Shown one piece after another: positions 1,974 to 64,000 of a DNA stretch of 64,000 bases. Both the position numbers and the translations under genes were made by a program. A model generated the notes under the pieces. That model was not told the origin of the DNA, did not search any database, and saw nothing but the letters and a program-made list of their open reading frames with translations. Numbering within the stretch: position 1 is the first letter of the stretch; every line of letters starts with the position of its first letter. The DNA comes from a virus: positions 112,804 through 176,803 of the IMG/VR virus record IMGVR_UViG_3300009285_003054; one strand, written 5' to 3'.

Positions 1974-2843
1974 TTAGCCTGGTAGGGAGTATATGCCCCG
2001 CATCCCAGCCAACCACCCTTCCGATTTTCGCCCGTCGGACCACAAGATCCCAATATATACATCCCCTTGTCTCTCTGGAGTTTTCTCTTCAGGATCCTGA
2101 TCGGAATCTGGGTTTTCCAACAATGGTCCGGTATATGTCACCACACCATGTTGACCTCGATCATCCACCACAGGTGCATTCGAGTGTAGTCTTTCACCCA
2201 AATCCGCTATAGGGACCCACCCACCCTCGGATACATCATCCATAAGCGCATGTGTGGGACACATTTGATGTTGGTATCTTCCTGAACGATTGTTAGTACT
2301 CCCGTAGAATGTCTGATCCCCACGGCTCTCGAAGTAGGTAATCTGAACGAGTCGTTGGCCTGGGTATATTATGGTAGGCTCTACTACTACAATCTCGAGA
2401 GTCCACCTCCCACAGAACCCGTTGTCACCCCTACCTGCAGTTACGTGGGTAAAAATCCCGAGTCGGCCAGTAGAAGATCTGCCGTCGAGGTAGGGTATAA
2501 GTCCCCACGATTCGGTGTACTCTCGTGTAACCCCGAGATAAAGTGTCGCAGGTCGAAGGATCCAGCAATCTTCTCTTGTTACTGGGTGTAGTATTAGCGG
2601 AACCACTTTTGTTACAGGTGGCCTTTTGGAGTCGATCACACCAGCTAATCTACCCCCGAATGCATCAGACGTTAATGCAATCTTTCTATTACCCTCATTG
2701 ACGATATCCCCTGAGTACATCCGCAGCTCATCTCCAAGGTGAAGGTCCACGGAATTGGAGTTGACACAGGCTGGATCGAACGGGTTGATTACAATCGTTC
2801 CTTTGGTAATCTGGTTTTTGATTTCCGCACCGGTGAGAATCAT
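1974..2843 (-). CDS. dcd: dCTP deaminase with C-terminal extension of about 90 aa
   Basis: MILT..EI start, NSVDLHLG, GRSSTGRLG, TAGRGDNGFCGRWTLEI, YPGQRLVQITY and GRYQHQ motifs. Confidence 0.92.
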   Translation of the reverse strand: MILTGAEIKNQITKGTIVINPFDPACVNSNSVDLHLGDELRMYSGDIVNEGNRKIALTSDAFGGRLAGVIDSKRPPVTKVVPLILHPVTREDCWILRPATLYLGVTREYTESWGLIPYLDGRSSTGRLGIFTHVTAGRGDNGFCGRWTLEIVVVEPTIIYPGQRLVQITYFESRGDQTFYGSTNNRSGRYQHQMCPTHALMDDVSEGGWVPIADLGERLHSNAPVVDDRGQHGVVTYTGPLLENPDSDQDPEEKTPERQGDVYIGILWSDGRKSEGWLAGMRGIYSLPG

Positions 2844-3391
2844 TTTCCACCCTTTGAATCCGTGAATGTCTCGGTACGGTTATTCGGAGAGTACCCTATA
2901 CCCTCTGGCAAGTATGCGACGACTTCCGAATGGTTGACAACCGTATACCGCGACCATATACCCATGATTTCCTTTGATACCAGCAAAGTTAGCCCCGAAA
3001 AACACAGCCCCATTTTCGCCGCCATGGCCATGGCCGAATAGTTGGTGTTGGAAATCATCGTGCTGACGGGCCAGTGCACTACTACCTGCTCCAGAAGCAT
3101 AGTCGCCACCCTTTGTCTTTGGTACTCGGGGTGGACAATCAATGATTCTATCCATATATGCATCTCCATCCCCGCATAGGGATGCATCATGGTAAGCCTA
3201 CCCAACCCAAATGAGGTAAGTCGGTAGCATAGGTAACCCACGAGCACGCCTGAATCATGTTGGGATACACATACTGACCCAGAGATCACGGACAACGCCA
3301 TGTCGAAAGGGTTCGACATGGGTCTCCCCCAGACTAGCGTCTCTAAGTTGATAATGCCGTCAAGATCAGATGTGGTTGCGAATCTAATCAT
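2840..3391 (-). CDS. GNAT family N-acetyltransferase (RimI-like)
   Basis: MIRFATTSDLDGIINLE start; motif A IESLIVHPEYQRQRVATMLL; N..A...KMG motif B. Overlaps dcd by 4 nt (ATGA). Confidence 0.85.
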   Translation of the reverse strand: MIRFATTSDLDGIINLETLVWGRPMSNPFDMALSVISGSVCVSQHDSGVLVGYLCYRLTSFGLGRLTMMHPYAGMEMHIWIESLIVHPEYQRQRVATMLLEQVVVHWPVSTMISNTNYSAMAMAAKMGLCFSGLTLLVSKEIMGIWSRYTVVNHSEVVAYLPEGIGYSPNNRTETFTDSKGGK

Positions 3392-3401
3392 GATTGATCT
3401 C

Positions 3402-4379
3402 CTATGTGGGGAATGTATACCCTACCTTGCTGGCTAGCAGAATTAACCGCTCCTCACTTATTCCATACAGGTGATCTCGATCGTAGGTGATATCTTTGAT
3501 TCGAGATTTGATGCTTCCTCGGGACAGCAACCGAACATGCTCGGGGTTGAAATGGTGCTCCACAGCTACCCGCGCCGCATCATTCAATGTCTCACCGTAG
3601 CAGATCGGGAGGATCTGCTGGATTGGATCCTTCGATTCGGCATGCACATCTGCAGGCAATTCTTCCACTAGTCGCGCCGTCTCTGCATTGATGTACTGTT
3701 GATCCATCTCGTTCTCATAGAGTACTACCATCATTAGTCTCTGAAGGATCCCGGGGAGAATATCTTCACTCACTCGATTCCTATATGTTATGGGAAAACA
3801 ATTGACAACAATTTCAGGAATCTTCTCCATTCGTCCAAGGACACTCTCTTGGGATACTTCAGACACTGTACAGAGATCCCCAAGCTTGGATAATACCCAA
3901 GACGTTGCACCAGCAAGAGAAAGTTCCGCCAGCAAAGACACGAAGTGGGGGGCAGTACTCATTAGTACTGTTTTCAACTCTATAGCCGCCTTGACAAACG
4001 AGAGTCTTGCCTTTTCTTGAGAAGGAAAAGGCATCAGTATCGAAGAAAGGAGGAACTCGAAATCAGGAGGGTGTATTTTGAATACTATTGTATGCTCACG
4101 AACGACTATGTGGATAATATACCGCATTAACATATAGAACCGCTGCCACGTATTGGTCATGCGGAACAATCGATACCATGCTGCTGTGTTCTCACATCTG
4201 GCCAACTCAGAACAAAATTCCAAGTCTACGTCAACCCTAACCTCACCAGTCCGGAAAATTCGACAAGTATCACGTGCGTAACGGGTGGTAAACCCATATT
4301 GCTTGCGCAGAGAATACTCGGAAATCCGTATAACTCTTGGGTCTAGTAACAAATCTCCAATGCTCACCTTTTTTGACAT
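3402..4379 (-). CDS. Hypothetical protein (325 aa)
   Basis: Long ORF whose start overlaps the upstream stop (TAATG). No recognisable motif. Confidence 0.6.
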   Translation of the reverse strand: MSKKVSIGDLLLDPRVIRISEYSLRKQYGFTTRYARDTCRIFRTGEVRVDVDLEFCSELARCENTAAWYRLFRMTNTWQRFYMLMRYIIHIVVREHTIVFKIHPPDFEFLLSSILMPFPSQEKARLSFVKAAIELKTVLMSTAPHFVSLLAELSLAGATSWVLSKLGDLCTVSEVSQESVLGRMEKIPEIVVNCFPITYRNRVSEDILPGILQRLMMVVLYENEMDQQYINAETARLVEELPADVHAESKDPIQQILPICYGETLNDAARVAVEHHFNPEHVRLLSRGSIKSRIKDITYDRDHLYGISEERLILLASKVGYTFPT

Positions 4380-5341
4380 TACGACAACTCCTTTTTAAGT
4401 AGGGTATCTCCGCGAGCAAAGGATCCATCTGGAGAAAGGATCTTTCGATCTAGTGACACCACAACACCTTTGTGGAACATTCCCAATTTCGGAAGGACAC
4501 ACTCTCTACAAAGATCAAACTTTCGCATTTGAACTGGAAGGAACTTGGATTCCCCAGTGGTCAGATCTCGATACCTGTCCCAAAATTCAACCCCCACACC
4601 CTCGCAAGCAGGACAATCTGGCCGAGCAATAGTTTGAAGAAGACTTTCTCTCCAGATTGGTTGTGCTCCTCGAATGGTGGAGTATATTAGATCATCCGAC
4701 AACTCAAAAGTGAACGTAGTCAGTTTGTCACATGCTGTCGGGGTATAATTGAGATAATATCCCCACCACGAGGGGATAAGGAAGTTCCAGAGGTAGATGA
4801 ATACATTAGCCGTGTCATGGAGCATTTGATTTATGCGGACATCCCCCAACCTCTGGAGCATACTTCGAGCACCTATTGGGGCATTAATAACCGCTGAGCG
4901 GGGGTTCCCGGGTTCTAACCAAGTAGGCCATAGTCGGCATAACAGTGGGCGCTCTGTCGGGGGTAGTTGGCAGTGATGCGTAGTCTTGCAGGTAAATCCG
5001 GTTTCGGGCATCTCATCTATTACAGGTTGGCAGGATGTCTCTTCCCGATGGTGTGGGCAGGTTGCCCCAAGGGTTCCGTCGGGAATGTCATCTTTACCCG
5101 CTAGCATCCGATATGCCTCCTCCCCGGGGAACACTTGTACCGGGGTTTGGTCATTGACTGGAAGACCCAGCTGGGATGTCGCCCAACAAACGCTCTGCAA
5201 GATCACCGAAGGGCACTTGGTGTAGAGTTGATCAAATACAATAAACCGGTACTGCTCCAATGCTGGGGGCAGTGCCAGTGTATCAAATATCCCCTGACCG
5301 AGTTGCTTGGATGATATGAGCATCGATTTGTTCCTTTCCAA
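4379..5341 (-). CDS. YkgJ-like Cys-cluster (Fe-S/Zn) protein with C-terminal CxxC...CxxC zinc ribbon
   Basis: TCPHH...CQL...ERPLLCRLWP matches the YkgJ C-terminal RPxxCRx[FY]P signature; CPAC and CREC follow. The start may be at 5323. Confidence 0.6.
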   Translation of the reverse strand: MERNKSMLISSKQLGQGIFDTLALPPALEQYRFIVFDQLYTKCPSVILQSVCWATSQLGLPVNDQTPVQVFPGEEAYRMLAGKDDIPDGTLGATCPHHREETSCQPVIDEMPETGFTCKTTHHCQLPPTERPLLCRLWPTWLEPGNPRSAVINAPIGARSMLQRLGDVRINQMLHDTANVFIYLWNFLIPSWWGYYLNYTPTACDKLTTFTFELSDDLIYSTIRGAQPIWRESLLQTIARPDCPACEGVGVEFWDRYRDLTTGESKFLPVQMRKFDLCRECVLPKLGMFHKGVVVSLDRKILSPDGSFARGDTLLKKELS

Positions 5342-6650
5342 AGATATCCACCATTAACTCATACAACCGTCTTTCCTCAGTAATCCAGGGTAAGCCTGCG
5401 CCTCTAAGAAGAGACGACCATGCCCATTCAAGATACTCTTGAGTATCCCATTCGGAAGGGAGCATTTCCCGTTCATCGGGGTACATGTCTGATGCCATCA
5501 GCGGATCACCATCGGGATCTTCCGATTTTACTACCAATCCTATCCGACCAGCATTCTCTACCGCACAGATAGCCAAGTGTGCATACGTGCGGAGAGGGAT
5601 TTTAGGTAGAGAGTTTCGATTCTCCCACATACCAAGCCCTACCCCAAATGATGGTACAGTGTGGGTTGCCCACCGACGTTTGTATTCATGTCTGTTGTCG
5701 AAATCTCCTGAGTAATCTTCGCCGTAATGATCTGCTCCGATGATTACGTCTGGGACGTGCAGCACGGATGATCCTTCTTGGATCAACGCAAGCATGGCAA
5801 AATTCCCGACCTCTTCCTCGCGAAGGCTCACGTCATAAATTGTTGACCTCGACATCCACCCACCTACACCCAAGTGGAAAAGCACATCAACTCCGACTAA
5901 ATTGTCACCCCGAAAGATCCCATATATTCGGAGTTGTCTCTGAGAATCTGGCTGCTGCGCGATCTCCCGCAGGATGCCAATGTCATAAGTGTGTGATCCA
6001 GGGACGTTGCCGTACCACTCCCACCACTGTTGATAGAGCCATCCGAATTTCTCTGTCTTGGTAATAGTACTGCCGTCCTGCAGTACATAGGCATATCCAA
6101 GTGCCTTAGTATTTGTCAACATCCGTCGAGTGTTCTTTCTAAATTTACTCGACGGATGTTGACTAATGTAATCTTCCGCACTTGATGTCATAATCGCGTG
6201 GTTTATCACCCCGGAGGTAAACCCTGGGAGACTACGGAGATTGCTACCCATGCTGGTGACATCACACATATTTACCAAATCGAGAACATATCCCTCTTCT
6301 TGTGCAATTTCAAACGCACGGGAGATACAGTGAAGATCCGGGGCGAACCAATCCCATCGCTTCAATTCAGGATATGGGACACCATATCCCCCGTTAATGG
6401 AGAAGTCACTCCACTCTCCGATCTCATTCTGGTAGAGAGGCATCGAAAAGATGCATCTTCCATCAAGAACCACATCAAAAAGACGATAAGGGGTGGCGAG
6501 TGTCCTCGGGTTGTCATCCAGGCATTGTTGGTATAACTCAGTCCATGTCCGCTGGTACATCCCAGCCAACTCTTGGTTCCAGATGAGATCTTGATGGAAT
6601 CGAGCACACCAGGGATGCTCTACTGGGTGTATGATTACTTCAGCAGCCAT
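5283..6650 (-). CDS. Fem/CelD-BcsL-like double-GNAT acyl or aminoacyl transferase
   Basis: EDYISQHPSSKFRKNTRR helix, LRIYGIFRGDNLVGVDVLF strand pair, YDVSLREEEVGNFAMLALIQE and EYKRRWA match the Acetyltransf_6 / FemAB pattern. Confidence 0.8.
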   Translation of the reverse strand: MAAEVIIHPVEHPWCARFHQDLIWNQELAGMYQRTWTELYQQCLDDNPRTLATPYRLFDVVLDGRCIFSMPLYQNEIGEWSDFSINGGYGVPYPELKRWDWFAPDLHCISRAFEIAQEEGYVLDLVNMCDVTSMGSNLRSLPGFTSGVINHAIMTSSAEDYISQHPSSKFRKNTRRMLTNTKALGYAYVLQDGSTITKTEKFGWLYQQWWEWYGNVPGSHTYDIGILREIAQQPDSQRQLRIYGIFRGDNLVGVDVLFHLGVGGWMSRSTIYDVSLREEEVGNFAMLALIQEGSSVLHVPDVIIGADHYGEDYSGDFDNRHEYKRRWATHTVPSFGVGLGMWENRNSLPKIPLRTYAHLAICAVENAGRIGLVVKSEDPDGDPLMASDMYPDEREMLPSEWDTQEYLEWAWSSLLRGAGLPWITEERRLYELMVDIFGKEQIDAHIIQATRSGDI

Positions 6651-6652
6651 GA

Positions 6653-8605
6653 TTAGTCCTTACCAAATTGATCCATGTCGACGTTGGTGATCTCACTACG
6701 GTCTGGGACACCGTAGTGGGGATCACTGTTCACACCACAACACATCATATCGTAGTGGGAATATGTGTACTTGTAATATGTTCCGATATCTTTATCGTTC
6801 CACACACCGTCTTCCACATCCTCCCCGCCATGACTGTACGCCAGGACGCCGTATTTGTGAAGTGCCACCGCGGCACTCCAGCAGAAGAACCTCCCCGGTT
6901 GATATTTCTTACGATCGGTCAGCGTGTTATGTGCGAACCAAAGTCGCTCCCACAGTTTTCCGTACAGCCGGATGAATATGTCTACTCCAAACAGTTCCCC
7001 ATCTGGTGCGTAGACCGGGAAGCATAGCATATTATCTTGCTCCCTACCCAAGTCCCTGCAGTATTGAGCCGAGTGTCCAAGCAGTCGGAAGTTCAGCTCA
7101 AACCATGGGTTTCCAATGGTCGGGATAGGATCCTCGAATAGGTCGAACCACTTACGAATACTGGCGTATGCTTCCACGGGAAGCATACGCCAGGGTAGAG
7201 GATCCCCGTAGTACCAGCCCATCTCATCGTGAACCTTCTTTGCGTTCCGCCACTTCCACGCTTTCTTGGATGGGTATGAGTTTGCAAACTCCTCGAAAGA
7301 AGGAAACGTCCGCGTGATGGGGGTTGAAAAGTTCTTGAAAATGTAGGGGGTTGTTCCGAATCGAGCAATCAGATCCTGATGAGGCAGTAGATGAATTCCA
7401 ATATTGAAAAATGTCCCACAAACATTGTAGGATGGATCATCCCGATCATCGAACTCCACGTTCCATGTCTGTTTGTCCCGCAACTGTCGGAGGATATCTA
7501 CCCCATCGATCAGAGAGTCTACATCCGGCGCAAACCATTGCCACATCCTGCTTGACGAGGGTGTAGGTTGGCACGACACCAATGATGGTCCCCTCGCCAG
7601 GAGTTCATGTTTGTAGTGCGGATAAGCTAGCAGCAACTTGGATCCACGATACACTTCGAGGAAGGTATGGTACCCCATGTCAAGAACAGCCTGCACTCCA
7701 CTAGGGGTATACATTGGGTGTGTTTGAAAGGGAAGTTTCCCCCCAATGTAATCGACTGTCCTAATTCGGATGTCGCCCCAATCCTGGAACAGATAACGCG
7801 GAACTCGATGTCTAACAGTTACGGAACATATTCTTCGTAGTGGATCGCTGTAGACTTTCCCTGGTTCTGTTACCTCAGTCTGCCAAAATAGGTGGAGGTT
7901 GTCCTTGATTGTGTCCCGCCAAATCTCAGAAGAAAAGACGTTGCTGTGTGGATCAGGTGGACCGTGTGGCTCCAGTATCGTTTCTGGGTCGTAGTGGTTT
8001 AGGAATTCGGTTTCTTTCTGGAGACTGGGAACTGCTAGCTCAAGATAGATTAACTTGTCGACTACCTGCATTATTCGATAGACTGCTGCCCCCATGTCAT
8101 CGAGACTCAAATGTTGCAGTGTCAAAAATGAGCATACCACATCATACCGTACAGGAAATCCGGCGGCTTTCAGTCTCTCCGACGAGATGTCCGACGCCGA
8201 ACACAGCATCAGATGTGTTCCAGGGCACGCAGTTCGGATAATATACTCACTCACATCCAACCCAAACACAGATGCATGATACCCGTGTTCGAGGAAGACA
8301 TCTTCTACCGCCTTCCCAAAATAACCTCGAGCGCATCCTACGTCCAGAATGGTCATTCCGTCACGAATAACATCCACATTCTCTAGGATATGGAAGAATC
8401 GCTCGGCCATCGCATCCCATGTCTGGTCTCCCTCATCATCTTCAAGATAACCCTGGTAATCCTCGTTGTACCCCTTGAGCACCCCACCCGGATCGTCAAA
8501 GTACGTCTGATCGAACACAGCGGGGGACGCTGTCTTACCTCCGTCAATTTCCTCATCTTCCTCTTCCTCTTCCTCTTCGATAATATCTTCGTTAGGGTCA
8601 CCCAT
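6653..8605 (-). CDS. Class I SAM methyltransferase fused to a Fem/CelD-like GNAT domain, with acidic N-tail
   Basis: ILDVGCARGYFG, GLDVSEY and YDVVCSFLTLQHL (methyltransferase). C-half SFEEFANSYPSKKAWKWR, GVDIF, KYQPGRF and YYKYTY parallel the downstream GNAT. Confidence 0.8.
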   Translation of the reverse strand: MGDPNEDIIEEEEEEEDEEIDGGKTASPAVFDQTYFDDPGGVLKGYNEDYQGYLEDDEGDQTWDAMAERFFHILENVDVIRDGMTILDVGCARGYFGKAVEDVFLEHGYHASVFGLDVSEYIIRTACPGTHLMLCSASDISSERLKAAGFPVRYDVVCSFLTLQHLSLDDMGAAVYRIMQVVDKLIYLELAVPSLQKETEFLNHYDPETILEPHGPPDPHSNVFSSEIWRDTIKDNLHLFWQTEVTEPGKVYSDPLRRICSVTVRHRVPRYLFQDWGDIRIRTVDYIGGKLPFQTHPMYTPSGVQAVLDMGYHTFLEVYRGSKLLLAYPHYKHELLARGPSLVSCQPTPSSSRMWQWFAPDVDSLIDGVDILRQLRDKQTWNVEFDDRDDPSYNVCGTFFNIGIHLLPHQDLIARFGTTPYIFKNFSTPITRTFPSFEEFANSYPSKKAWKWRNAKKVHDEMGWYYGDPLPWRMLPVEAYASIRKWFDLFEDPIPTIGNPWFELNFRLLGHSAQYCRDLGREQDNMLCFPVYAPDGELFGVDIFIRLYGKLWERLWFAHNTLTDRKKYQPGRFFCWSAAVALHKYGVLAYSHGGEDVEDGVWNDKDIGTYYKYTYSHYDMMCCGVNSDPHYGVPDRSEITNVDMDQFGKD

Positions 8606-11600
8606 CTGATTTTCTCCCGCTGTGCTGTTGTTTTCTGAGATACCTAATATAGCGCATCGCCCCTTTCGGATACTTGCCCCACTTCTCTTTATGTTCCAAT
8701 GCCACCCTCATTAGGATTACTTCGAGCATAGGAATAGAGAAGTCCCATTCGTGAAGATCACCCCACCTAATGCCGATCCCAAAGTCACATTCCATCGGAG
8801 CCACGAACTTCACCCCGAAGTGTTTAACCATGTGTCGCATTGCCCACTTCGATAAACATAGCTCCATAACCCGGACGGCGCGTGGCACATCCTCGAACGG
8901 TACTTCCATATAGATAGCGTCATGAACGGTGTTGACCAGTTTCCAGCGCCCTTGCAGCTTGTTGCGCAGGATATAACGCTGGAGGATACCAATAGCTATC
9001 AAGCAGGCATCCGATGCTACCCCTTGAATCGGGGAGTTCTTAGCCTGCTTCTCAGCATGGGACTGAACCCACTCAGGTGCATTTTCCCAGATAGCTGGGT
9101 TGAACCGTCGTCGTCGCCCCAGAATGGACTCGACATAACCATTCTTGCGTGCATCATCCGGCCAGGTTTGCAATCTGCGGGCAAATCGCACGTACTTAGA
9201 ATCAAAAGCATTACAAAGCCGTTTCGTTGCAGCTACATCTTTTTTGATCTGGGATGCAATCGATTTGATCCCTCGACCATACATGTACCCAAAGACAATT
9301 GTCTTTGTCTCGGTGCGGAGGTTTTTAGTAACATCGTGGATGTCTACCCCAAAAAACTCCGATGCCGTCATCCGGTGGATGTCGCCTTTAAGGGATGCCT
9401 CAACCCGAAGGAATAACACATGCTTAAGAGCTTCCCCACCCTCGAGAGCAATCTCCTGGATCCGTATGGCCTCGGAATTCAGTGGTACGGACTTTTTCTT
9501 TTTCCCCCGGTCACACCATTTGGCTTTCTTCTCGAGGGTAAGGTATTCTCGATACAGGGTATGTGTCTTTGGGTCAAGGTGATTGACAACCTTTCGATAG
9601 GCATCCCGTGCAGCCCGGCCTTGATAGAAGAGCTTCCCGAGTACCTTATCCTCTGATTCGTTAGCCCCCATGCGGACCTCGTTCGCCATGAGGTCCGCTC
9701 CTACTAACACCCTATCGCGGGGGCTAATCAGGATGTTTTTAGCCGCTTTCTTGGGGGGTGTATTTGCTCTCGGAAAGTTTGCCATGTTGGGGTTGGAGTG
9801 TGCCAACCGAGCGGTCACTGTTGATGTCAACCCAAAGGTTCCGCGTACTCGACCATCTGTGCGCATATCGGGGTCCCCGGTGTCCGGGTGTACCCATTTG
9901 TATATAGCGTTAACAAACGTTGACACGAGAACGTGCAAGCCGTTCCAGTCTTTGACAATAGCCGCCTCGTTCAGTGGATTCCCGTCTTCGTCCCACTCGC
10001 CATATACCTCATAAAATGATGCATTGACTTGGGGGAGTTTGCCCTTCTCTGTAAACGATACGGGCTCCAGCCCCATCTCATCAAAGAACAGCATCCGCAG
10101 GTGGGCATCTTTAGTTAGGGACATCACCCAGGGAACTCCACCCCAGAGTGAGTGGATATTGCTTGACTCCTGTTTCCATATCCGTTTGTTTACCACTTGA
10201 GCCGGTCTGGATTTTTTAAGCTTGTCCACCAGACCGTACATTGATTTAAGTAAGACGCTTCTCTTTGGGTCGAGGAGCCTACGCAGCTCATCAATATCGG
10301 CAAGAAACCCATTCTGTTCCATCGCCACGATACCCAGGTAGGCATCTGAGTAAAGAAAGTAAACCAAGCGAAGGAGTTTCTCCCGGTAACCCTGCCCTTC
10401 CGCCTCAATCAGTAGTTCCTGGAACAGTCGCCATAGTCCCCATGCGTCTTTCCCACCATACTTCCGCAGACGATCCAGCGTCCAGTTGACTACATTCCAA
10501 CGGTCTGCTTTATCATCGCCATCGTAGGCATACTCGTCCCCCAAATACATCCGAGTGAGCAATGAGAGAGATAACCCTCGTTCTCTGTCTGGGTAGTAAT
10601 ACTCCTTCGGATCTCGGGATCCTGCTATCCGATTCTCATCCAGCAAGTATGCCACTTGCATGGAGTCGACCACTGGGTTATTAGTGACATCCACCCCTAA
10701 CTCTCGGTGAATTTGATGCAAGTCGAACACTGCTTTATGCATCAACCAAATCCAGCGATTGACCTTGCGTGTTTTGCCACCCAGTTTGACAGTCGCAGCA
10801 GTAAATACCTTGCGTAGGAGTGCGGATATCTTCGGAAAATCGTCTGTGAAGAACGGGGTCTGTGGATGCTTGAGCGGGATGACATACGCTGTTTCCCCAT
10901 CCCACGAGAATTGGATAGATACCATGTCATTGTCGTAGACTCGATGGAGGTTGCGGTCCTCCGTATCACACGCAACCACACTTCCCCGAGGAAGTGTAAG
11001 GATTTGTTTAACTATCTTGCGTACCCCCGCTACCGTTTCTACAAGAACACTTTTTCCCTCTCGGATGTCTTTGAAACTCTCCGATGCGGCAGCTCTTCCG
11101 GAGAGCTGAATCGCTTTTCGGATATCCTTGACAAACTCCCTCCCAGCATCAGTGGCAAGTCCACCCTGCCGCTGAACATACGAGGGGTGGTATGCAAAGA
11201 GGTAGGTTACCCCCGCTTGGTGTTTTACTTGCCCTCTTATGCGGGTTATCCCATCAGCTTGCGGGAAGTGTTCCTGCACTGCGGTATTCCCAAGCAAAAC
11301 AACCACCTTAGGGTGGTATTTTTTGAGATTTTCCCGGAAGTAATGTGCACAAGCCGTCTGCTCCTCCGCAGTGGGTGCACGGTCCATACCCTGCTTATCA
11401 ATCGGGCGACATTTCACCCCGTTATCAAACCCACACCCTTCTAATCCGCCATTGGTTTGGTGTAGCACATCTCGAAGTAGCGCCCCTGACTTACCCCTTG
11501 GGTTGAATGGTATGCCATCCTCGTCCTCAGTCTTACCCGGAGCATCTCCCTTGAAAAGCACGTCAAGACTCCCGCTTACGGAGGGGTGAAACTCCAGCGG

Positions 11601-11696
11601 AACACACGAAGTGGTGATATGATCAGCATGGTATAGAGGACAATTTAGACACACGGATTGCCGTTGCCTTCGGCAGAATTCTGCGGAAGTTGGCAT
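8598..11696 (-). CDS. polA: Family A DNA polymerase with N-terminal family-4 uracil-DNA glycosylase domain and 3'-5' exonuclease (SPO1-like architecture)
   Basis: UDG: CLNCPL, GDAPGKTED..GIPF, KCRP, YHPSY. Exo: DTE, HKAVFD, YGGKDA. Pol: TARLAHSNPNMANFP, DLMANEVR (A), RTETKTIVFGYMYG (B), NSPIQG, VHDAIY (C). Confidence 0.95.
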   Translation of the reverse strand: MPTSAEFCRRQRQSVCLNCPLYHADHITTSCVPLEFHPSVSGSLDVLFKGDAPGKTEDEDGIPFNPRGKSGALLRDVLHQTNGGLEGCGFDNGVKCRPIDKQGMDRAPTAEEQTACAHYFRENLKKYHPKVVVLLGNTAVQEHFPQADGITRIRGQVKHQAGVTYLFAYHPSYVQRQGGLATDAGREFVKDIRKAIQLSGRAAASESFKDIREGKSVLVETVAGVRKIVKQILTLPRGSVVACDTEDRNLHRVYDNDMVSIQFSWDGETAYVIPLKHPQTPFFTDDFPKISALLRKVFTAATVKLGGKTRKVNRWIWLMHKAVFDLHQIHRELGVDVTNNPVVDSMQVAYLLDENRIAGSRDPKEYYYPDRERGLSLSLLTRMYLGDEYAYDGDDKADRWNVVNWTLDRLRKYGGKDAWGLWRLFQELLIEAEGQGYREKLLRLVYFLYSDAYLGIVAMEQNGFLADIDELRRLLDPKRSVLLKSMYGLVDKLKKSRPAQVVNKRIWKQESSNIHSLWGGVPWVMSLTKDAHLRMLFFDEMGLEPVSFTEKGKLPQVNASFYEVYGEWDEDGNPLNEAAIVKDWNGLHVLVSTFVNAIYKWVHPDTGDPDMRTDGRVRGTFGLTSTVTARLAHSNPNMANFPRANTPPKKAAKNILISPRDRVLVGADLMANEVRMGANESEDKVLGKLFYQGRAARDAYRKVVNHLDPKTHTLYREYLTLEKKAKWCDRGKKKKSVPLNSEAIRIQEIALEGGEALKHVLFLRVEASLKGDIHRMTASEFFGVDIHDVTKNLRTETKTIVFGYMYGRGIKSIASQIKKDVAATKRLCNAFDSKYVRFARRLQTWPDDARKNGYVESILGRRRRFNPAIWENAPEWVQSHAEKQAKNSPIQGVASDACLIAIGILQRYILRNKLQGRWKLVNTVHDAIYMEVPFEDVPRAVRVMELCLSKWAMRHMVKHFGVKFVAPMECDFGIGIRWGDLHEWDFSIPMLEVILMRVALEHKEKWGKYPKGAMRYIRYLRKQQHSGRKSDG

Positions 11697-11761
11697 GTTG
11701 CTACCTCAATGAAATGATTTGGTATTACCTTGTAGTCTTTAGGCAGGGTAGGGTAAGGGAG

Positions 11762-12154
11762 TTAGTCGGGTTGGGGGATTTCAAAGTGTTGTAGCAATGC
11801 CTGTAGGGTAAGTGATCCAATACGTTTGATCACTTGTTCTCTCTGCGGAGTACGTATTGCCAGCCACTTGGCTTGCAACTCTACGAAGGGTTCGACCAGG
11901 CAACCCTGTGATCGGATGGCAGAGAAAAGCTCAAATCTCCGAGAACCCAAAGTTACGGTAAGCATTCCCTGAGTAAACTCTAGGGGGAGCCGAACGCCAT
12001 TCTCTGCTATCAACAGACATACTCCTAGTGGAGTGCTTGGTCGGATTGATCCCACTGCTTCAGGCATCGGAGCATTTCCTAAAATGGCGTCTCTCCGGAG
12101 AGATCCAAGTTTGTCTCTTACAATGGGTAGTCTACTCTTCCCGCAGCATGCCAT
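11762..12154 (-). CDS. Hypothetical protein (MACCGK N-terminus)
   Basis: ORF fills the gap between polA and queE in operon orientation. Confidence 0.55.
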   Translation of the reverse strand: MACCGKSRLPIVRDKLGSLRRDAILGNAPMPEAVGSIRPSTPLGVCLLIAENGVRLPLEFTQGMLTVTLGSRRFELFSAIRSQGCLVEPFVELQAKWLAIRTPQREQVIKRIGSLTLQALLQHFEIPQPD

Positions 12155-12326
12155 CAGAAACCCCCGTCTTCCTCACGGAATCAACAAACTCTTCTCTGTG
12201 CTCAATCTGGAGCGTCAATTTTGGTTTAGTCCGGATACCCATAGTCACATCTGACACTGTGGCTTGAGCCAACACTACCTGTCGAGGTTGTATTGATACA
12301 CATCGAGTTTTTCTATAGTTGGACAC
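12132..12326 (-). CDS. Small hypothetical protein
   Basis: 64-aa ORF with GTG start 2 nt after the queE stop. Confidence 0.4.
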   Translation of the reverse strand: MSNYRKTRCVSIQPRQVVLAQATVSDVTMGIRTKPKLTLQIEHREEFVDSVRKTGVSDGMLREE

Positions 12327-12328
12327 AG

Positions 12329-13045
12329 CTACCGCCCTCTTTCGCCATCCCAGATTAATGTGTGAAGCCGAGTGGATAAGTTGAACCCGGAGTGTAGAAT
12401 CTTGTCTAAAATACCCTCTAGTGAGAAGCTCTGAAGTCTCTGAATAAGACCCTCTCGATTCCTACACTCTGGCATGATCCAAACGTTACCTGGTTGAATT
12501 TTATAGTCACTAACAATGCGTGATACAATGTGGAACTCTAATTCCGAAGATATTACAAATTTGAATCGGAGTGAGTCAGCCGGTACACGACTAGTCCATT
12601 CCCGGAAGTCGATCCCAGTGGACCCTGAATCGGCGGAAGCTAACTTTGGGGATACGGTAAATTTGACGTAATCCGGTATCTCCCAAGATGGGTAGATTTC
12701 ACCATTGGTTTCGATCTCGACCCGAAACCAATTTAAGATGATGGCCAGTAGATCCAAATCCTCTGACACATGTATCATGGGCTCACCCCCCGTGAGTACA
12801 AATAGTCTTCTTTGCAGATAGTCTTTCGTAAATCCTGGATCCAGGGTCATCTCTTTTGCGGTCATCATAGTAATCTTTGTCGGATCGAGCACACCTTTCT
12901 TCCATGCGTACTCTGTGTCACACCACCGACAGTGTAGGTTACACCCGGCCATCCGAACGAATCTGGCCGGGGAGCCAATCGACGGACCCTCCCCCTGGAA
13001 TGAGTCGAACATTTCAACGACTGGGTATTTTTTCTGATCGATCAT
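12329..13045 (-). CDS. queE: 7-carboxy-7-deazaguanine synthase (radical SAM)
   Basis: EMFDSFQGEG, FVRMAGCNLHCRWCDT (CxxxCxxC), LTGGEP, IETNG, VSPKL and RLHTLIW. Start set at MIDQKK, which has a GGAGG RBS. Confidence 0.93.
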   Translation of the reverse strand: MIDQKKYPVVEMFDSFQGEGPSIGSPARFVRMAGCNLHCRWCDTEYAWKKGVLDPTKITMMTAKEMTLDPGFTKDYLQRRLFVLTGGEPMIHVSEDLDLLAIILNWFRVEIETNGEIYPSWEIPDYVKFTVSPKLASADSGSTGIDFREWTSRVPADSLRFKFVISSELEFHIVSRIVSDYKIQPGNVWIMPECRNREGLIQRLQSFSLEGILDKILHSGFNLSTRLHTLIWDGERGR

Positions 13046-45830: not shown

Positions 45831-46739
45831 CTAAGCGGTTAGCCGCGCAATGTGACGAATAAACTCATCACGTGCACCTAAATCATTGTCCATGAATGCA
45901 CCTCGCAATGCGGTGCTCGAGGTGCGTGATGACTCCATCCTAACACCACGAGCGCAGATACACGTATGCATAGCATCCGCAATTACTGCACTTCCATCAG
46001 ATTTTATCCGAAGTTTTGACCAAATGTCATCTGTGTTGTCATCGGAGCTATTGCTATAGAGAATGTCCGCGATCATCTCCGGCACTGACTCGTGTAGGAT
46101 GGGTTGAGACCCCACGGCTACCGCCACTCGCACAAGTTTAGACAAACCAAGCAACTCGGTTGTCTTCCCACTATCTAGCGGCAGATATGCCATATGGATG
46201 ACATATCTGATGGGGAGCAGGTGGTGGGGGCACATCCCCCACACGACGTTGTTGGCGGATATGACCATGGAGCCAACCACCTCGAAAGTACTGGATGCCA
46301 TCCCCGCCTCCCGGTACCCCGGGAATCTTTTGCTCAATTGGTACAGCGTTTCCTGCTCGAGCAACCATCGTGGAGGGTGGCTGTCGAACAGAGCCTCGGA
46401 GCATCGTCGTGCGGAATCTGTAAAGTTGGCACGATCCCTATCAGAATCGTAACCAAACTCATTCATCAGCACATCCACGATACCCTGGTAGTGGGGGATT
46501 AGAGCGTCTACTATTTGTCGCCTTCGACTTGATCTCCGCATCCCTATCAGAAGACACGCCAACTCCGCTGAGTCCATGTCCGAAGATTCGTCCTCCACCA
46601 TTCCGGCCAACAGAGCCCGAAGATCCGCTGGGCTCTTGTTGGGTATCTCCTGTGCGAGTATCTCTGCAGCATGGCGTTCACTTCCGGGGGACAGCATAGG
46701 CGCCCCAGAGGGATCCCGAAGTACTTTTATCTTAGTCAT
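45831..46739 (-). CDS. folE: GTP cyclohydrolase I (FolE) with N-terminal extension
   Basis: MCPHHLLP, HMAYLP, LGLSKLVR, Q.ILHE, HTCICARGV and ALRGAF...RDEF motifs. Confidence 0.93.
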   Translation of the reverse strand: MTKIKVLRDPSGAPMLSPGSERHAAEILAQEIPNKSPADLRALLAGMVEDESSDMDSAELACLLIGMRRSSRRRQIVDALIPHYQGIVDVLMNEFGYDSDRDRANFTDSARRCSEALFDSHPPRWLLEQETLYQLSKRFPGYREAGMASSTFEVVGSMVISANNVVWGMCPHHLLPIRYVIHMAYLPLDSGKTTELLGLSKLVRVAVAVGSQPILHESVPEMIADILYSNSSDDNTDDIWSKLRIKSDGSAVIADAMHTCICARGVRMESSRTSSTALRGAFMDNDLGARDEFIRHIARLTA

Positions 46740-48471: not shown

Positions 48472-49527
48472 TCACCTTGTTGCGGGGAAACGGGTTATGT
48501 CTTCTGCAAGAGAGTAGCACCCGTAATGCTTGAGCAGGATGTCCCGGAGCACGGACTGTGCGTGGTGGTTACGCTTCGGCCAGATACGAATCCTGCTGAG
48601 CTGAATGAGTGCATGGTTTCTCTTTATAGCGGCCATTCCTTGGGATATCTTCGCTCTTTCGGATTTTGAGAGAGAATTGGGCTCTCTAGCTATCGCTTGG
48701 ATGAGACTTTGTACCGATCCATCGCATCCGGAGAATGATTTGGATGCATCCTTATCAATAACCCACCACATAGCCCGGGCCAGAGCCTCCTTCCGAATTC
48801 TAGGTATTCCCGGAATGTGATCAGATGTGTCACCAGTTACCGCTTTGAACAATGGCACATTCACGGGGAGTACGGGGAAATGAACATGCAGATGAGAGCC
48901 CACTTCTGAAGGAGTCCGGACCCACCCATCCTTGTTTGTGGACGGGGTCCATAGTGTTACGGGGTCCACCAAGGAAAGAAGATCTCGATCGGATGTCATT
49001 ACTTGGATGGTGGCTCTAGTATGGCGTTTCTCCCGATCTTCTCGCTTCCTAAACCAATACAAAAAGGCCGAGATTACATCATCAGCTTCTTCGTCGGGAT
49101 GATAGAGGACATACCCCGGTAAAATAGATACGACCCGAGTGATGTCAGGCATAGGATCCCCATCCCGTCTCGAATCCTCTCTACCTCCTTTGTACTCGGT
49201 ATAGGACCGATACTTACGTTCCGGGTAACCGTCTAGTGCATACACCACCGATGTGGGTATAGTGGGGTGTTGTTTCAAAAAACTGATAATCGTGCGGACA
49301 AAGCCCAGAACATGTCCTGACTTGCGCCCGTTGTAAATCATCTTAGACAACGAAGGGGTGTGCCAACTACGCCACCCGATATTGTTGGAGTCTACGATAA
49401 TAACACGTCGCGCTCGGGACAAACCCACTAAATTAAAGTCAGGCAATCGGATGATATCCACAGGAAACCCACTAGGATGCACAGTTGTCAAAGAGCCCCG
49501 TTTGTGCGTGGTCCAACTCTTTCCCAA
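48472..49527 (-). CDS. 5'-3' exonuclease / flap endonuclease (PolI N-terminal or T4 RNase H family)
   Basis: IIVDSNN, ALDG, YKGGR, EADDVI, TSDRDL and GDTSDHIPGIPRI motifs. Confidence 0.92.
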   Translation of the reverse strand: MGKSWTTHKRGSLTTVHPSGFPVDIIRLPDFNLVGLSRARRVIIVDSNNIGWRSWHTPSLSKMIYNGRKSGHVLGFVRTIISFLKQHPTIPTSVVYALDGYPERKYRSYTEYKGGREDSRRDGDPMPDITRVVSILPGYVLYHPDEEADDVISAFLYWFRKREDREKRHTRATIQVMTSDRDLLSLVDPVTLWTPSTNKDGWVRTPSEVGSHLHVHFPVLPVNVPLFKAVTGDTSDHIPGIPRIRKEALARAMWWVIDKDASKSFSGCDGSVQSLIQAIAREPNSLSKSERAKISQGMAAIKRNHALIQLSRIRIWPKRNHHAQSVLRDILLKHYGCYSLAEDITRFPATR

Positions 49528-49840
49528 TCAACGTCATGTCGATAGGGACTTTGTTTTTTCCACGGATCGCAGCCAGCCATGACTCCAACCCCGAGGCTAT
49601 TGTTTTTTTGCAGCCGTAAGCCTGAGCCAGGTCGCACTCCGGAACCGCGACCGTAATTTGTATACCGTAGCTGGCCCGCAGTCTAGTGGTTTCCGGACGC
49701 TCCACCTGGTACACTCGGGAAATCACGTCCACTTCATTCCCATGATCTACTACCAATGAGAATGCAGGGCTTAGAATGTCTCGAATGCGACTGGCCAAAA
49801 CACACACCAGTTCGAGCGGCATATCAGTATTCGATCTCAC
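49472..49840 (-). CDS. Hypothetical protein
   Basis: 122-aa ORF with GTG start and GAGGAG RBS. Confidence 0.5.
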   Translation of the reverse strand: MRSNTDMPLELVCVLASRIRDILSPAFSLVVDHGNEVDVISRVYQVERPETTRLRASYGIQITVAVPECDLAQAYGCKKTIASGLESWLAAIRGKNKVPIDMTLIGKELDHAQTGLFDNCAS

Positions 49841-49853
49841 TTGTTACTCCTCA

Positions 49854-51341
49854 TCAGAGTGAAGTTAGTTCCGGCATAACCCCTTTTCCCGAGTTGACTT
49901 TGCTTCGTAACATCTTGACGTTATTACCCTGAGGCTTGCCATTCCCTTCCCTCAAAACTTTGTTACTATTTCCTGTTTTTTCTTTAAGGGTGTGCATCTC
50001 TCTAGTATGTGCAGAAGATCTCCGTTTGGTGGACATCATGTCCTTTCGGATAGAATCCTTTTCCATCACACCCCCGTCTTGAATACGCATGTGTTGGAAG
50101 TCCAAAAGCAACTGAATGTCGTATAGACGACTGTTCCTGGCTTTATCCTGGTGGGCTATGACATTCCCCCGCTCGCGTGATGCATCGTCCAATCGCCACC
50201 AAATCAAATTGTTGGCGTGCTCAGCCATCGCTCGACTATACTTCAGACGGTTGTCATCGTTGAGTTGCGCCATGACCAGCATGGCGCAATTGAGATAACG
50301 CTTACCAGCGATGATTTTCAGTATCTTTGCCGTCTCACCAAGTTGAATTCTCTCCTCATTGGATGTCCCATGAGGAGGCATAAGCAACCCGATGTAGTCG
50401 ATTATGACAACATCATATGCATAGCCACGAATCTCTGCTAGAAGTTGCCATGGGTCAATATACCCAGGATGGTACGTTGAAAATCGACACTTGTGTTTTA
50501 CCCCGTGTGCAATAAAACGCTTGCGTGCCCGTTGTAGTTCATCCTTTTGATACGGGGTAAGCTTCCTTCTTCTAATGGCATCGTGTTCTACCCCACTGAT
50601 ATTGGAATGAATCCGATCCCAAGCTTCACCCTCGTCCATTTCCAGCGATACCCAGAGAACATTGTATCCAGCTAGGTACATGTTGATGCCCACTTGCATC
50701 CCGAACACAGACTTTCCACCTCCGTAATTGGATGCGAAGAACACTAGATTGGTACGACCAAATCCGCCAGTGTTGGTGTCAAAACTCTCAAATCCCGTAG
50801 GGATCAACTCCATGGACTCATTATCGTCAAGGACAGACTGGAAAAGCCCACCCTCGTTGCTAGCCCCTACGTGGAAGATCATCGATCCAGTCGATGATCT
50901 CACACTCATCAAGTAACTTTCGATCTTGGATGCCAACCCAGCATGGTTGGGGTTATCTCGGCTGATCTCTTCAGCGGAGTCTTTCGCCAACATATAGAAT
51001 ATGCGCTGTTGTCGATAGGTATCAAGCCTCTCTACTGTGTGCGCAATATCACTTAGGCGAGAAAGACGGGATGGGTGTCGAGCCTGCTTTGGAGAAAGAC
51101 CCGACTTGATAAACAATCGCGCGGGTGTACTAAGTGCAGGATCTTCGGCTATAATCCTCGCAGATGGGATATCTCGATTAGCCTGAATATAGCCATGGAT
51201 TCGATCATATATCTCTGCTGCCGGGCGATGCCCAAAATGCTCCCTTCTTGTTGCTGAGAGCATTTGATTTCGTATGCTCCCACGACCATCCAGGATCGTT
51301 GCAAGCGCACGCAGTTCCAACCGGGGACTTACTCTTTTCAC
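49854..51341 (-). CDS. dnaB: Replicative DnaB-like helicase
   Basis: IPTGFESFD..TGG, ASNYGGGKS (Walker A), SLEM, IIDYIGL, AQLN and KARN motifs. Confidence 0.92.
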   Translation of the reverse strand: MKRVSPRLELRALATILDGRGSIRNQMLSATRREHFGHRPAAEIYDRIHGYIQANRDIPSARIIAEDPALSTPARLFIKSGLSPKQARHPSRLSRLSDIAHTVERLDTYRQQRIFYMLAKDSAEEISRDNPNHAGLASKIESYLMSVRSSTGSMIFHVGASNEGGLFQSVLDDNESMELIPTGFESFDTNTGGFGRTNLVFFASNYGGGKSVFGMQVGINMYLAGYNVLWVSLEMDEGEAWDRIHSNISGVEHDAIRRRKLTPYQKDELQRARKRFIAHGVKHKCRFSTYHPGYIDPWQLLAEIRGYAYDVVIIDYIGLLMPPHGTSNEERIQLGETAKILKIIAGKRYLNCAMLVMAQLNDDNRLKYSRAMAEHANNLIWWRLDDASRERGNVIAHQDKARNSRLYDIQLLLDFQHMRIQDGGVMEKDSIRKDMMSTKRRSSAHTREMHTLKEKTGNSNKVLREGNGKPQGNNVKMLRSKVNSGKGVMPELTSL

Positions 51342-51973
51342 CGAGACTCCCGCTTAGCAGAGAAACCACCCCGGGTATGTAAAATAACATCTGGTCGATA
51401 ATGCACGCGGTCGACCATAAAGTCAAAAGGATCTGTTCCCGCTATAATTACTATGCGTGTAGCCTCTGAAAAACGGGATAGCAGATCGCGTAGTAAGACT
51501 ACTCGGCTATCACATGCACAAAGAGGTATGATGTTGTAGAGAAGTACGATTGGTGCAGCGTCTGCAATGCGCCACCAATCCCTACCGATGTTATTCCCCG
51601 AATGGTCTGTCTCATCCAGACTGGGAACACGCCCCAGATCGATTACTTTCGCTGGCTTAGCAGGCAGAGTCAAGTAATGTCGAATGAGGTTCACCCCTAG
51701 ATGGAGTGCGACATCATCGGTCTCCGATGACCCAATGGCAACCACCCCGGAGGAAAGGAGTGTGTCTGCCCGTTCTAATAGTCTAGTGTAGACATCGAGT
51801 TGGCGCTCTGGTGTTATCCGAATCTTATGATCACCCGCCGGAATCGTGATTCCTAAGAAAGGTGGGAGTTTTACGAGGGGTTTCCAGTATTGTGAAGGGA
51901 TTCCTGCAAGAAGGAGCAAACGCTCATCAATAGATGCACGCTTCCATTGGGGACCTCGATATGTAAGGGACAT
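51338..51973 (-). CDS. DnaC/IstB-like helicase loader with degenerate P-loop
   Basis: LAGIPSQYW N-motif; LRDLLSRF...TRIVII; directly upstream of dnaB. The Walker A position reads GSSETDD. Confidence 0.5.
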   Translation of the reverse strand: MSLTYRGPQWKRASIDERLLLLAGIPSQYWKPLVKLPPFLGITIPAGDHKIRITPERQLDVYTRLLERADTLLSSGVVAIGSSETDDVALHLGVNLIRHYLTLPAKPAKVIDLGRVPSLDETDHSGNNIGRDWWRIADAAPIVLLYNIIPLCACDSRVVLLRDLLSRFSEATRIVIIAGTDPFDFMVDRVHYRPDVILHTRGGFSAKRESR

Positions 51974-52059
51974 ATCACAAACTTTCGGTGGGATAAGGAT
52001 TCTGTGGTTACTGGTTGCTCTTTATCCTCAGTCATAGTAGTGTGATCCAGAGCGCGGTC

Positions 52060-53673
52060 CTACACATAATCTTTCTTTCTCACTATGTAGGAAGGTTCTT
52101 TTGGGCCATAGTTTGAACCTTTTCGTGAAGATGCAACGTTCTCATCGCCACCATACATCTGAATCTTCAGTTCCCATGATCGATTGAGGAACCCGGCAAT
52201 GCGTGAGTCTTCCGGGTATGCTGTATCGTGATATATGACAATTTTTACTGGCCAGTGCTTGGCGTCGAGCATCGATCCCCCGCACTTAGAGCAGACATCC
52301 TTCCCGTCGGAAGATGTGCGCTTGCAGCTCTGGCACATCCGATAATCGCGCAGTACCCGCCCACGGCGCTGCTTGAGTGTTTGCACGTTGGTTGTAGGAG
52401 ATAGATCGTGTACACAATCTATTCCCGGCATATCGGTGTTCATTCCCACCGATCGATCTGTAGCTATAAGCACATCATACTCTCGGGAACCAACTGCCAG
52501 GATCTTTTGCTGCTGCTTACAGTCACCCCCCATAAGTATCTCAGAAACTATCTCGCGAGTCTTTTGCTTTCCATCACCAATGATAGGTACCCGCTCGGAT
52601 TTGAGCATAGACTGGAGCTGAAGGGCCTGTGCCCTCCGGTCTACTAGTACCAGTACCTTGTACCCACTGATCACATCGTCTAGAACCCCATCAACCACCA
52701 AGGAGTTCCGCGCACGTCTACGTGATAGCTGAGTACAAAGCGATCCATACCATTGCGCACCGTAGATGTACCGGGAGTTAACTTGTTCCCCTGTCTCTAC
52801 AGGAACCACTTCAGCGGTCTTTTGACATCCCAGGAATACTCCCTGCGTGACTACCGGACCACAGTAGTCGTAGGTCAGCTTATGTCTCCTGTCCCGGCGC
52901 ACCTCGTCTGCGGATAGCCCCATCCGCCAACGAGGTGCGAACGCTGTGAATACCTTGCTGGTCTCCAGTGCAGGAAGCATCACCGCTTCGTCGAAGATAA
53001 CCATCCCAAATGCGTGTCGAAGTATTCTCCGCATTGCCTTCCCCCTATGCGACATGAAAGCATTAGGGGTGGCTACACTGAAAGGGAACACATCGTCAAC
53101 AGACTTGATCTTACCTGCCTGTAGTATCCCGGCTAGTGGTTTGTATCCTCGGGATTCAAGCACCTTTGCGTTGGTGTGGGCGTATACCTCTCTTATCCAG
53201 TTTTCACACCAATTCGTTCGTGCGGTAATCACGAGGACCCTTTGATTGAGTCGGACTGCGACATAGATCCCGTAAAAGCATTTTCCCCAAGAAGTTGGAG
53301 CCAACACCAAGCCATACCCATCCGCTAGTTGATACTCAAGCAGACAAGTCTCTTGATTGTATCGCGGGGTGCTGGTCATTTTAATCCCTCGGGGGAGAGG
53401 GACCGACGCACGACAATCCTTCCATGTTACTTCGGGGAGTTTTGCTTTGATCAGTGCCAAACGTCCACTGTGAATGCGAATGGTCTTCCCTCGTCTCCGG
53501 AAGTTCTCTACTGTGACGGATATCGGACGCTCCTCAAACTGGGTTTCCCCATCGGAGTCAATCACCTCGACGGTCTCGATGTCTCGGAATCGATAGGTGA
53601 ACTCCCGAAGGAGTTTGGGGGGTACTGCCGATGCGGGGAGGTACACTCCGTTAGAAATCTTCCCTTTTATCAC
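52060..53673 (-). CDS. Superfamily 2 helicase (UvsW/RadD-like) with zinc-ribbon insertion
   Basis: PRYNQ (Q motif), APTSWGKC, FDEA, GLSA..RRD, QRRGRVLR and CQSC...CSKC. Confidence 0.85.
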   Translation of the reverse strand: MIKGKISNGVYLPASAVPPKLLREFTYRFRDIETVEVIDSDGETQFEERPISVTVENFRRRGKTIRIHSGRLALIKAKLPEVTWKDCRASVPLPRGIKMTSTPRYNQETCLLEYQLADGYGLVLAPTSWGKCFYGIYVAVRLNQRVLVITARTNWCENWIREVYAHTNAKVLESRGYKPLAGILQAGKIKSVDDVFPFSVATPNAFMSHRGKAMRRILRHAFGMVIFDEAVMLPALETSKVFTAFAPRWRMGLSADEVRRDRRHKLTYDYCGPVVTQGVFLGCQKTAEVVPVETGEQVNSRYIYGAQWYGSLCTQLSRRRARNSLVVDGVLDDVISGYKVLVLVDRRAQALQLQSMLKSERVPIIGDGKQKTREIVSEILMGGDCKQQQKILAVGSREYDVLIATDRSVGMNTDMPGIDCVHDLSPTTNVQTLKQRRGRVLRDYRMCQSCKRTSSDGKDVCSKCGGSMLDAKHWPVKIVIYHDTAYPEDSRIAGFLNRSWELKIQMYGGDENVASSRKGSNYGPKEPSYIVRKKDYV

Positions 53674-53677
53674 TACG

Positions 53678-56330: not shown

Positions 56331-56349
56331 ACGTTATTGTCTCTCTTGT

Positions 56350-63999: not shown

Positions 64000-64000
64000 G

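Follow-up and report, generated by a model that had tools for sequence, protein, structure and literature searches.

Fem-type transferase genes linked to the deazaguanine pathway of a groundwater phage: candidate tailoring enzymes for a proposed aminoacylated base in DNA

Which molecule do the transferases encoded beside the DNA polymerase of a groundwater phage modify? The question is raised by a block of open reading frames (ORFs) running from queE to dcd, at positions 1974-13045 of a 64,000-nucleotide stretch of viral DNA (IMG/VR record IMGVR_UViG_3300009285_003054, positions 112,804 to 176,803). This stretch, the window, forms the final 64 kb of a contig of 176,803 bp; coordinates marked C1 are those of the whole contig, and the labels L012, L014, L016, L018, L019, L020, L021, L024, L025, and L028 denote contigs of relatives with homologous genes. 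Our reading, drawn only from gene order and predicted folds, is that the block would encode tailoring enzymes for an aminoacylated 7-deazaguanine in DNA, and we put its probability at roughly one half.

The block contains ten ORFs, all on the minus strand. Re-calling them returned the order, the single orientation, and the overlaps of the initial annotation, including the 8 nt shared by the polymerase and methyltransferase genes; folE was found at 45.8 kb, where it had been placed. The intergenic spacings from polA onward to dcd are -8, +2, -41, -1, +10, and -4 nt. The gene order is kept in L012, L014, L016, and L018 at 24-57% protein identity, so the block is not a product of chance. The features are as follows.

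12329-13045, minus strand: queE, radical S-adenosylmethionine (SAM) 7-carboxy-7-deazaguanine synthase (PHROG 2076, E 2e-46), at the same position in L012, L016, and L018
12132-12326, minus strand: small ORF of 64 aa; small Cys-containing ORFs stand at the equivalent place in L012, L016, and L018
11762-12154, minus strand: conserved hypothetical protein of 130 aa, 36% identical to its L012 and L016 counterparts
8598-11696, minus strand: family A DNA polymerase (PolA) with an N-terminal family-4-like uracil-DNA glycosylase (UDG) domain (PolA, UDG, and exonuclease Pfam matches)
6653-8605, minus strand: class I SAM methyltransferase (about residues 25-268) fused to a Fem-type double-GNAT protein, paralogue b (Methyltransf matches, paralogy)
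5283-6650, minus strand: Fem-type double-GNAT protein of 455 aa, paralogue a, a predicted aminoacyl-tRNA-dependent transferase (Pfam Acetyltransf_6, E 1e-5)
4379-5341 (alternative 5' end 5323), minus strand: Cys protein of YkgJ-like predicted shape (ESM Atlas match) with a C-terminal zinc finger
3402-4379, minus strand: conserved hypothetical protein of 325 aa, with homologues in L012, L014, L016, and L018 and no Pfam or PHROG match
2840-3391, minus strand: single-domain RimI-type GNAT (Acetyltransf_1, E 8e-8), probably acyl-CoA dependent
1974-2843, minus strand: dcd, dCTP deaminase (Pfam DCD, E 3e-34)
45831-46739, minus strand: folE, GTP cyclohydrolase I, the first step towards preQ0 (Pfam, E 1e-21)

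The 455-aa protein is the core of the module. Its structural model (mean pLDDT 68) has a double-GNAT fold and matched Sba18 and Sbb17 best, followed by FemX and the aminoacyl-phosphatidylglycerol synthases (aaPGS), all ahead of acyl-CoA GNATs (Foldseek E 2e-8 to 1e-5; VIA Z 14.7, root-mean-square deviation 3.9 over 266 residues). The Fem-like assignment made at first reading is borne out by these matches, which support an aminoacyl-tRNA transferase fold; use of that donor is a prediction. The GNAT half of the methyltransferase fusion had no Pfam match, and pairwise BLAST overlooked its paralogy with the 455-aa protein, which profile comparison found (hhalign 99.4%, E 1e-21) and through which the fold assignment is extended to the fusion. 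The methyltransferase domain itself matched Methyltransf_25 below the cut-off (E 2e-5).

FemX relies on a basic helix for tRNA binding and on Lys305 for catalysis (PMC12945691). Y323, K324, and W327 are invariant in the alignment of the 455-aa family, the basic helix residues K169, R171, and R175 are kept in its seven closest homologues, and the fusion has a YK motif at 611-612. Of 21 Fem-like sequences, 20 have a lysine equivalent to K324 by pattern, and the remaining one has it by eye. Matched by position only, K324 appears to be the counterpart of FemX K305 and is likely catalytic. Four Fem-type proteins are encoded in the genome, since a second pair of paralogous ORFs lies between queC and queD. 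The ESM Atlas grouped this pair with Acetyltransf_6, FemAB, and LPG synthase proteins and alone linked it to the first pair, a link that profile comparison did not return. Nor did profile comparison give any orthology of the single-domain GNATs across lineages.

The weight of what is present or missing elsewhere depends on how complete the genome is. CheckV estimated the contig at 57% completeness. The same 12-bp tandem repeat occurs at both contig ends, independent groundwater-metagenome assemblies measure 177,180 and 177,283 bp, and terminase, portal, capsid, helicase, and primase genes are all encoded. We treated the genome as an apparently complete phage genome of ~177 kb, a circle opened within the repeat, and genome-wide absences therefore carry weight within the sensitivity of the searches. 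The repeat array, which crosses the junction (window ~63930-64000 plus C1:1-210) and accounts for the linear assembly, is a possible origin or packaging element. Profile searches with hidden Markov models (HMMs) overlooked the gene related to tRNA-guanine transglycosylases (TGT) and DpdA, which was found later by motif inspection, so other absences reported by the same tool run the same risk.

With folE and queE, two genes outside the window complete the preQ0 synthesis set, and the third is the divergent dpdA:

C1:20891-21475: queD
C1:27195-28226: queC
C1:29413-31383: dpdA, 656 aa, with TGT catalytic and zinc motifs

The initial annotation had counted a genome lacking dpdA among the grounds against a modified DNA base; with dpdA, queC, and queD all present, that objection falls away. 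Other genes that it had looked to in the rest of the genome, queF and those for glycosyltransferases, thymidylate synthase, and a kinase, here sought as 5-hydroxymethyluracil (5hmU) kinase, were not detected. The interval between queC and queD encodes a SpeE-like aminopropyltransferase, the second Fem-type pair, and a radical SAM/SPASM protein, so that dpdA, queC, speE-like, Fem-type, radical SAM/SPASM, and queD genes follow one another in a single run (C1:20891-31383; L002:5892-16384). This run is probably the other half of the same system. An RNA ligase-family gene (C1:20091-20924) adjoins queD.

The 656-aa DpdA scores under the TGT and DpdA HMM cut-offs. Its catalytic aspartates and zinc site align with the archaeal TGT 1iq8, and its motifs align also with proteins of the phages Motura and Peetri. 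The best cultured matches are phage TGT-like proteins of 20-23% identity, one of them within the Motura que cluster. Compared with Motura and Peetri, the DpdA proteins of three Fem-carrying phages have motif changes in common, at positions that we take, from general knowledge of TGT structure, to lie near the substrate pocket. These changes fit an altered substrate, without proving one.

Is the association of Fem-type and deazaguanine genes a habit of this genome alone? A full-library homologue search returned 13 other matches, of which 11 were real homologues. Word-based searches found no relatives in IMG/VR; GTDB genomes gave no match to the short Fem family, neither the short Fem protein nor the second Fem pair had a homologue in INPHARED, and no cultured relative with these Fem genes was found. 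Four arrangements place the family near que/dpd genes.

In the first (L012, L016, L018), queE, the two small ORFs, polA, Fem a, the Cys protein, and the 325-aa ORF are kept; the contig of a further member, L014, is truncated on the upstream side. The genes between polA and Fem a vary: a methyltransferase-Fem b fusion here and in L018, GNAT-unknown-Fem b in L016, where a RimI-class GNAT is fused to paralogue b and replaces the methyltransferase, and nothing in L012. A RimI-class GNAT also precedes the Fem pair in L021 and L025. The second arrangement (L019) consists of dpdA, queC, a methyltransferase gene, a speE-like gene, a second-type Fem gene, and Fem a, with queD and an Orn/DAP/Arg decarboxylase-family gene further on; after queD, at L019:18058-21326, this last gene is accompanied by an Fpg glycosylase and an Apyc1-like anti-Pycsar gene. 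The third (L024) reads dpdA, Fem b, queC, queC, Fem a; neighbouring genes are -1 to 12 nt apart, and its Fem b, between dpdA and queC, is a free-standing homologue (E 4e-11) of the fused one. A partial gene after Fem a (L024:10975-11109) resembles the Fem a N-terminus by eye and is possibly a third paralogue. The fourth belongs to a distant lineage of phage-like appearance, unmatched among GTDB genomes (L020, L025, L028): queD, queE, folE, PIG-L, sometimes a weak GT-B gene, a HAD-GNAT fusion, two Fem paralogues, and a related SAM methyltransferase. Its Fem genes cluster together in the tree (support 99/98), which suggests that the pair was duplicated independently in the two lineages. In L025 a SAM synthetase gene, metK, lies between queE and folE (L025:1459-2502) and would suit a SAM-requiring module.

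Conservation of the cluster, which the initial annotation had proposed to examine, is thus found in part. The order is kept in four relatives, and a simple GNAT, a methyltransferase, and two Fem proteins recur together in the distant lineage, but the five-enzyme set is not fixed: L012 has neither the fusion nor dcd in the block, and in L016 a GNAT replaces the methyltransferase. What does recur is the partner pathway. A que/dpd gene lies no more than 6 kb upstream in all eight distinct loci long enough to judge, four of which share one inherited layout.

The Fem enzymes might nevertheless act on proteins, the host envelope, RNA, or a diffusible metabolite, in a phage that makes an ordinary preQ0/preQ1 modification and keeps the transferases nearby through clustering of accessory genes. 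FemX (peptidoglycan) and aaPGS (lipid) both match the 455-aa model well, the Fem proteins are acidic, four of the long loci go back to one inherited layout, and a tmRNA gene (C1:65379-65790; no tRNA genes were found in the genome) makes an RNA target for the TGT-like enzyme conceivable. Against such targets, the two Fem genes of L024 are interspersed with dpdA and a pair of queC genes with almost no space between them, the Fem-deazaguanine link recurs in an unrelated lineage (L020, L025), and the closest cultured relatives of the TGT-like protein stand in phage que clusters, for example in Motura. We consider a target other than DNA unlikely.

What of the polymerase? The constant partner of the Fem family is the deazaguanine pathway; polA is a neighbour in the first arrangement only and is missing from those of L019, L024, L020, and L025. 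DpdA inserts deazaguanines after replication (PMC10516641). The coupling to the polymerase that had been proposed for this operon is therefore unsupported, with adjacency in one of four arrangements and a post-replicative DpdA, and UDG-PolA is probably a syntenic neighbour that takes no part in the tailoring chemistry. With dpdA in the genome and polA adjacent in one arrangement only, we rejected the idea that the polymerase incorporates a modified dNTP. The window also encodes a 5'-3' exonuclease, an ATP-dependent ligase, and PolX (48472-57492), which with the UDG domain of PolA make up most of a base-excision repair set.

The same neighbours raise the question of whether the block tailors a dUTP-derived pyrimidine, as in thymidine hypermodification, in parallel with a simple deazaguanine system. 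Both dcd and the UDG-fused PolA lie within the block, and an HMUDK_hel (aGPT-Pplase1) gene (E 2e-61) occurs elsewhere in the genome, with a related methyltransferase gene after it. On the other hand, ThyA, including a ThyA-type hydroxymethylase, ThyX, the P-loop 5hmU kinase, and ADDT were not detected in the genome, and a thymidylate synthase homologue is reported in all members of the published thymidine-modifying phage group. In addition, dcd is a variable member, missing from the block in L012 and L014, and Fem homologues track que/dpd genes, not dcd. We regard a pyrimidine target as improbable. For the amine-bearing base proposed in the initial annotation, the recurrence of Fem homologues next to deazaguanine genes favours the deazaguanine form, and the pyrimidine form is weakened. 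The stand-alone HMUDK_hel gene and the SAM methyltransferase gene that follows it occupy C1:43976-45620 (L003:8976-10620); a homologue of this methyltransferase lies directly after queC in L019.

The distant lineage bears on a different acceptor. A glycosyltransferase might attach an N-acetylglucosamine-like sugar, either to a virion protein or to the deazaguanine itself; PIG-L would deacetylate the sugar, and its freed amine would be aminoacylated by the Fem enzymes. L025 and L028 carry folE, PIG-L, a weak GT-B gene (E 0.011), the HAD-GNAT fusion, the Fem pair, and the methyltransferase; the top fold matches, Sba18 and Sbb17, aminoacylate streptothrisamine; and an Acyl_transf_3 gene is nearby in L016. 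Yet neither a glycosyltransferase nor PIG-L was detected in the apparently complete genome studied here, where a very remote glycosyltransferase could escape detection and the batch scans covered ORFs of at least 95 aa except three at boundaries. There is none between PIG-L and the GNATs in L020, and none in L019 or L024. The sugar alternative that had been raised at first reading is still plausible in the distant lineage, whose module has PIG-L and the weak GT-B gene at its flanks, and finds no glycosyltransferase in this phage; as an account of the block it is quite unlikely.

Under the aminoacylated deazaguanine reading, the genes suggest the following route. FolE, QueD, QueE, and QueC would make preQ0 by the established pathway. 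An amine handle at position 7 would be provided either as preQ1 by a host QueF or as a polyamine extension by the SpeE-like enzyme beside queC; a precedent for the former is the DpdA2 of VH7D, which takes host preQ1 (PMC10516641). The Fem-type paralogues would then transfer amino acids from charged host tRNA to this amine, probably in sequence like FemA and FemB, much as Mom uses Gly-tRNA on DNA (PMC13219725). The SAM methyltransferase, the RimI-type GNAT, and perhaps the YkgJ-like protein would cap the product in ways that vary among relatives, and the divergent DpdA would exchange the base into DNA after replication, as is established for DpdA. The acidic isoelectric point (~4.9) of both Fem proteins of the block weakly favours tailoring on the free base over tailoring on DNA. 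The likely purpose would be escape from nucleases and from defences that recognize simple deazaguanines.

The Cys protein deserves separate treatment, a point overlooked at first reading, since the known dPreQ1 methylase belongs to the YkgJ family. That enzyme, DpdM, is a validated YkgJ-family (DUF3109/YkgJ) protein with a CxxxCxxCC motif and two metal sites, and DpdM and DpdN decorate the preQ1 amine (PMC10516641). The label "YkgJ-like" finds some support in the predicted shape, with a template modelling (TM) score against the YkgJ cluster of the ESM Atlas of 0.63 by target and 0.38 by query (mean pLDDT 64), and not at the level of Pfam, which gave no YkgJ match. The model had no clear PDB or BFVD match, and an Atlas feature search was uninformative. 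C43, C52, C95, C124, C135, C243, C246, C278, and C281 are invariant. Identity with DpdM was rejected: the CxxxCxxCC motif is missing from all eight members of the Cys-protein family, and there was no profile match to the phiSM DpdM (CEPG_00054). In an alignment by eye, the four Cys of the second DpdM site are kept (C52, C95, C124, C135) and the first site is not. The protein may work like a DpdM-type tailoring enzyme. It was found only in the polA-adjacent arrangement. A second, distant paralogue of ~280 aa occurs in the block of three relatives (L012:13284-14132, L016:13483-14316, L018:13547-14389) and is missing from this genome.

Several observations weigh against an aminoacylated deazaguanine. 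QueF, QueF-L, ArcS, and GAT-QueC were not detected in the genome (PF14489, PF17884, and the Motura GAT protein gave no match; remote homologues could escape), which makes the amine source the weak point, one that a host QueF or the SpeE-like enzyme could fill. Enzymes with the Fem fold modify peptides, lipids, and amino sugars as well, and it is an amino-sugar enzyme that matches the model best. The first three arrangements are one phage family and not fully independent; in the distant lineage the module has PIG-L, a HAD domain, and a weak GT-B gene as neighbours, and no dpdA could be seen on the short contigs. By arithmetic from the coordinates, ~27% of the genome is no more than 6 kb away from a que/dpd gene, and genes of nucleic-acid metabolism cluster in phage genomes anyway. 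Finally, the genome strongly avoids ACGCGT (0 seen), CGTACG, CCTAGG, GACGTC, and TTCGAA, an avoidance partly common to L012, L016, L018, L019, and L024. It points to host restriction systems, and these avoided six-base palindromes imply that any protection of the DNA would be incomplete, at best partial. They reveal no target motif, because they do not sort by any G-containing dinucleotide.

Other features of the genome include two N6/N4 DNA methyltransferase-like genes (C1:19176-20069 by Pfam, C1:103896-104705 by eye), a 2H phosphoesterase gene, an intein-containing ORF, and, at window 57572-58153, a 193-aa protein that contains a long acidic stretch. A promoter scan stayed at chance level.

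The new evidence is the linkage of the enzymes of this block to dpdA and que genes in other phages. If the reading holds, an aminoacylated or peptidyl deazaguanine would unite two separate chemistries, base exchange by DpdA and Mom-like tRNA-dependent transfer, and would offer enzymes for placing amino-acid handles on DNA and a possible phage route past defences aimed at simple deazaguanines. A bolder version, which we offer tentatively and hold to be doubtful, is that several Fem-type enzymes (up to four), drawing on charged tRNA, attach amino acids one after another and so build a short peptide on the aminomethyl or polyamine arm of the 7-deazaguanine, that it receives a methyl or acetyl cap, and that a specialized DpdA clade inserts it. 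It would be unprecedented both as a peptidyl purine in DNA and as a case of Fem-fold enzymes with a nucleobase acceptor. In a largely non-subscription literature, we found neither a published link of Fem-type enzymes to deazaguanine DNA modification nor a described phage pathway with this set, in agreement with what had been stated at first reading.

Among known systems, phage Mu Mom (PMC13219725) is likewise a GNAT-superfamily enzyme that uses aminoacyl-tRNA on phage DNA, an activity that is predicted from the genes here. Mom works as a single enzyme on N6 of canonical adenine, whereas this phage has paralogous double-GNAT Fem-fold proteins linked to deazaguanine genes, and no match to the Mom family was seen in its genome. 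With FemABX, aaPGS/MprF, and Sba18/Sbb17/Orf11 (PMC12945691), these proteins have in common the double-GNAT fold and tandem paralogues and, as far as positions in the sequence suggest, the basic helix and a conserved lysine near the C-terminus. They differ from FemABX, aaPGS, and Sba18 in sequence (9-14% identity), and the known acceptors are peptides, lipids, and amino sugars, never a nucleobase. Thymidine hypermodification in M6, ViI, and PaMx11 (PMC8989533) follows a similar logic, in which an amino acid is placed on the base and then sculpted by accessory enzymes, a GNAT for example, in variable combinations; that route needs 5hmU, a P-loop kinase, and aGPT-Pplase2 with free amino acids, none of which was detected in this phage. 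A further comparison is with the phage 7-deazaguanine systems that use DpdA1-4, DpdM, and DpdN (Hutinet 2019, PMC6884629; Cui 2023, PMC10516641), which share FolE, QueD, QueE, QueC, and a TGT-fold DpdA with this phage. Its DpdA differs in being a 656-aa protein, 20-23% identical to cultured phage proteins and under all HMM cut-offs, and no QueF, ArcS, or GAT-QueC was found, unlike in the described systems. Tailoring of the position-7 amine is known there, with a methyl group added by DpdM and a formyl group proposed for DpdN, and this phage has a protein that may share the YkgJ shape. In phage DNA, eight derivatives of deazaguanine have been described, none with a tailoring group larger than methyl or formyl (PMC10516641); unlike the described tailoring sets, this phage has four Fem-type transferases, a class I SAM methyltransferase, a RimI-type GNAT, and a SpeE-like enzyme.

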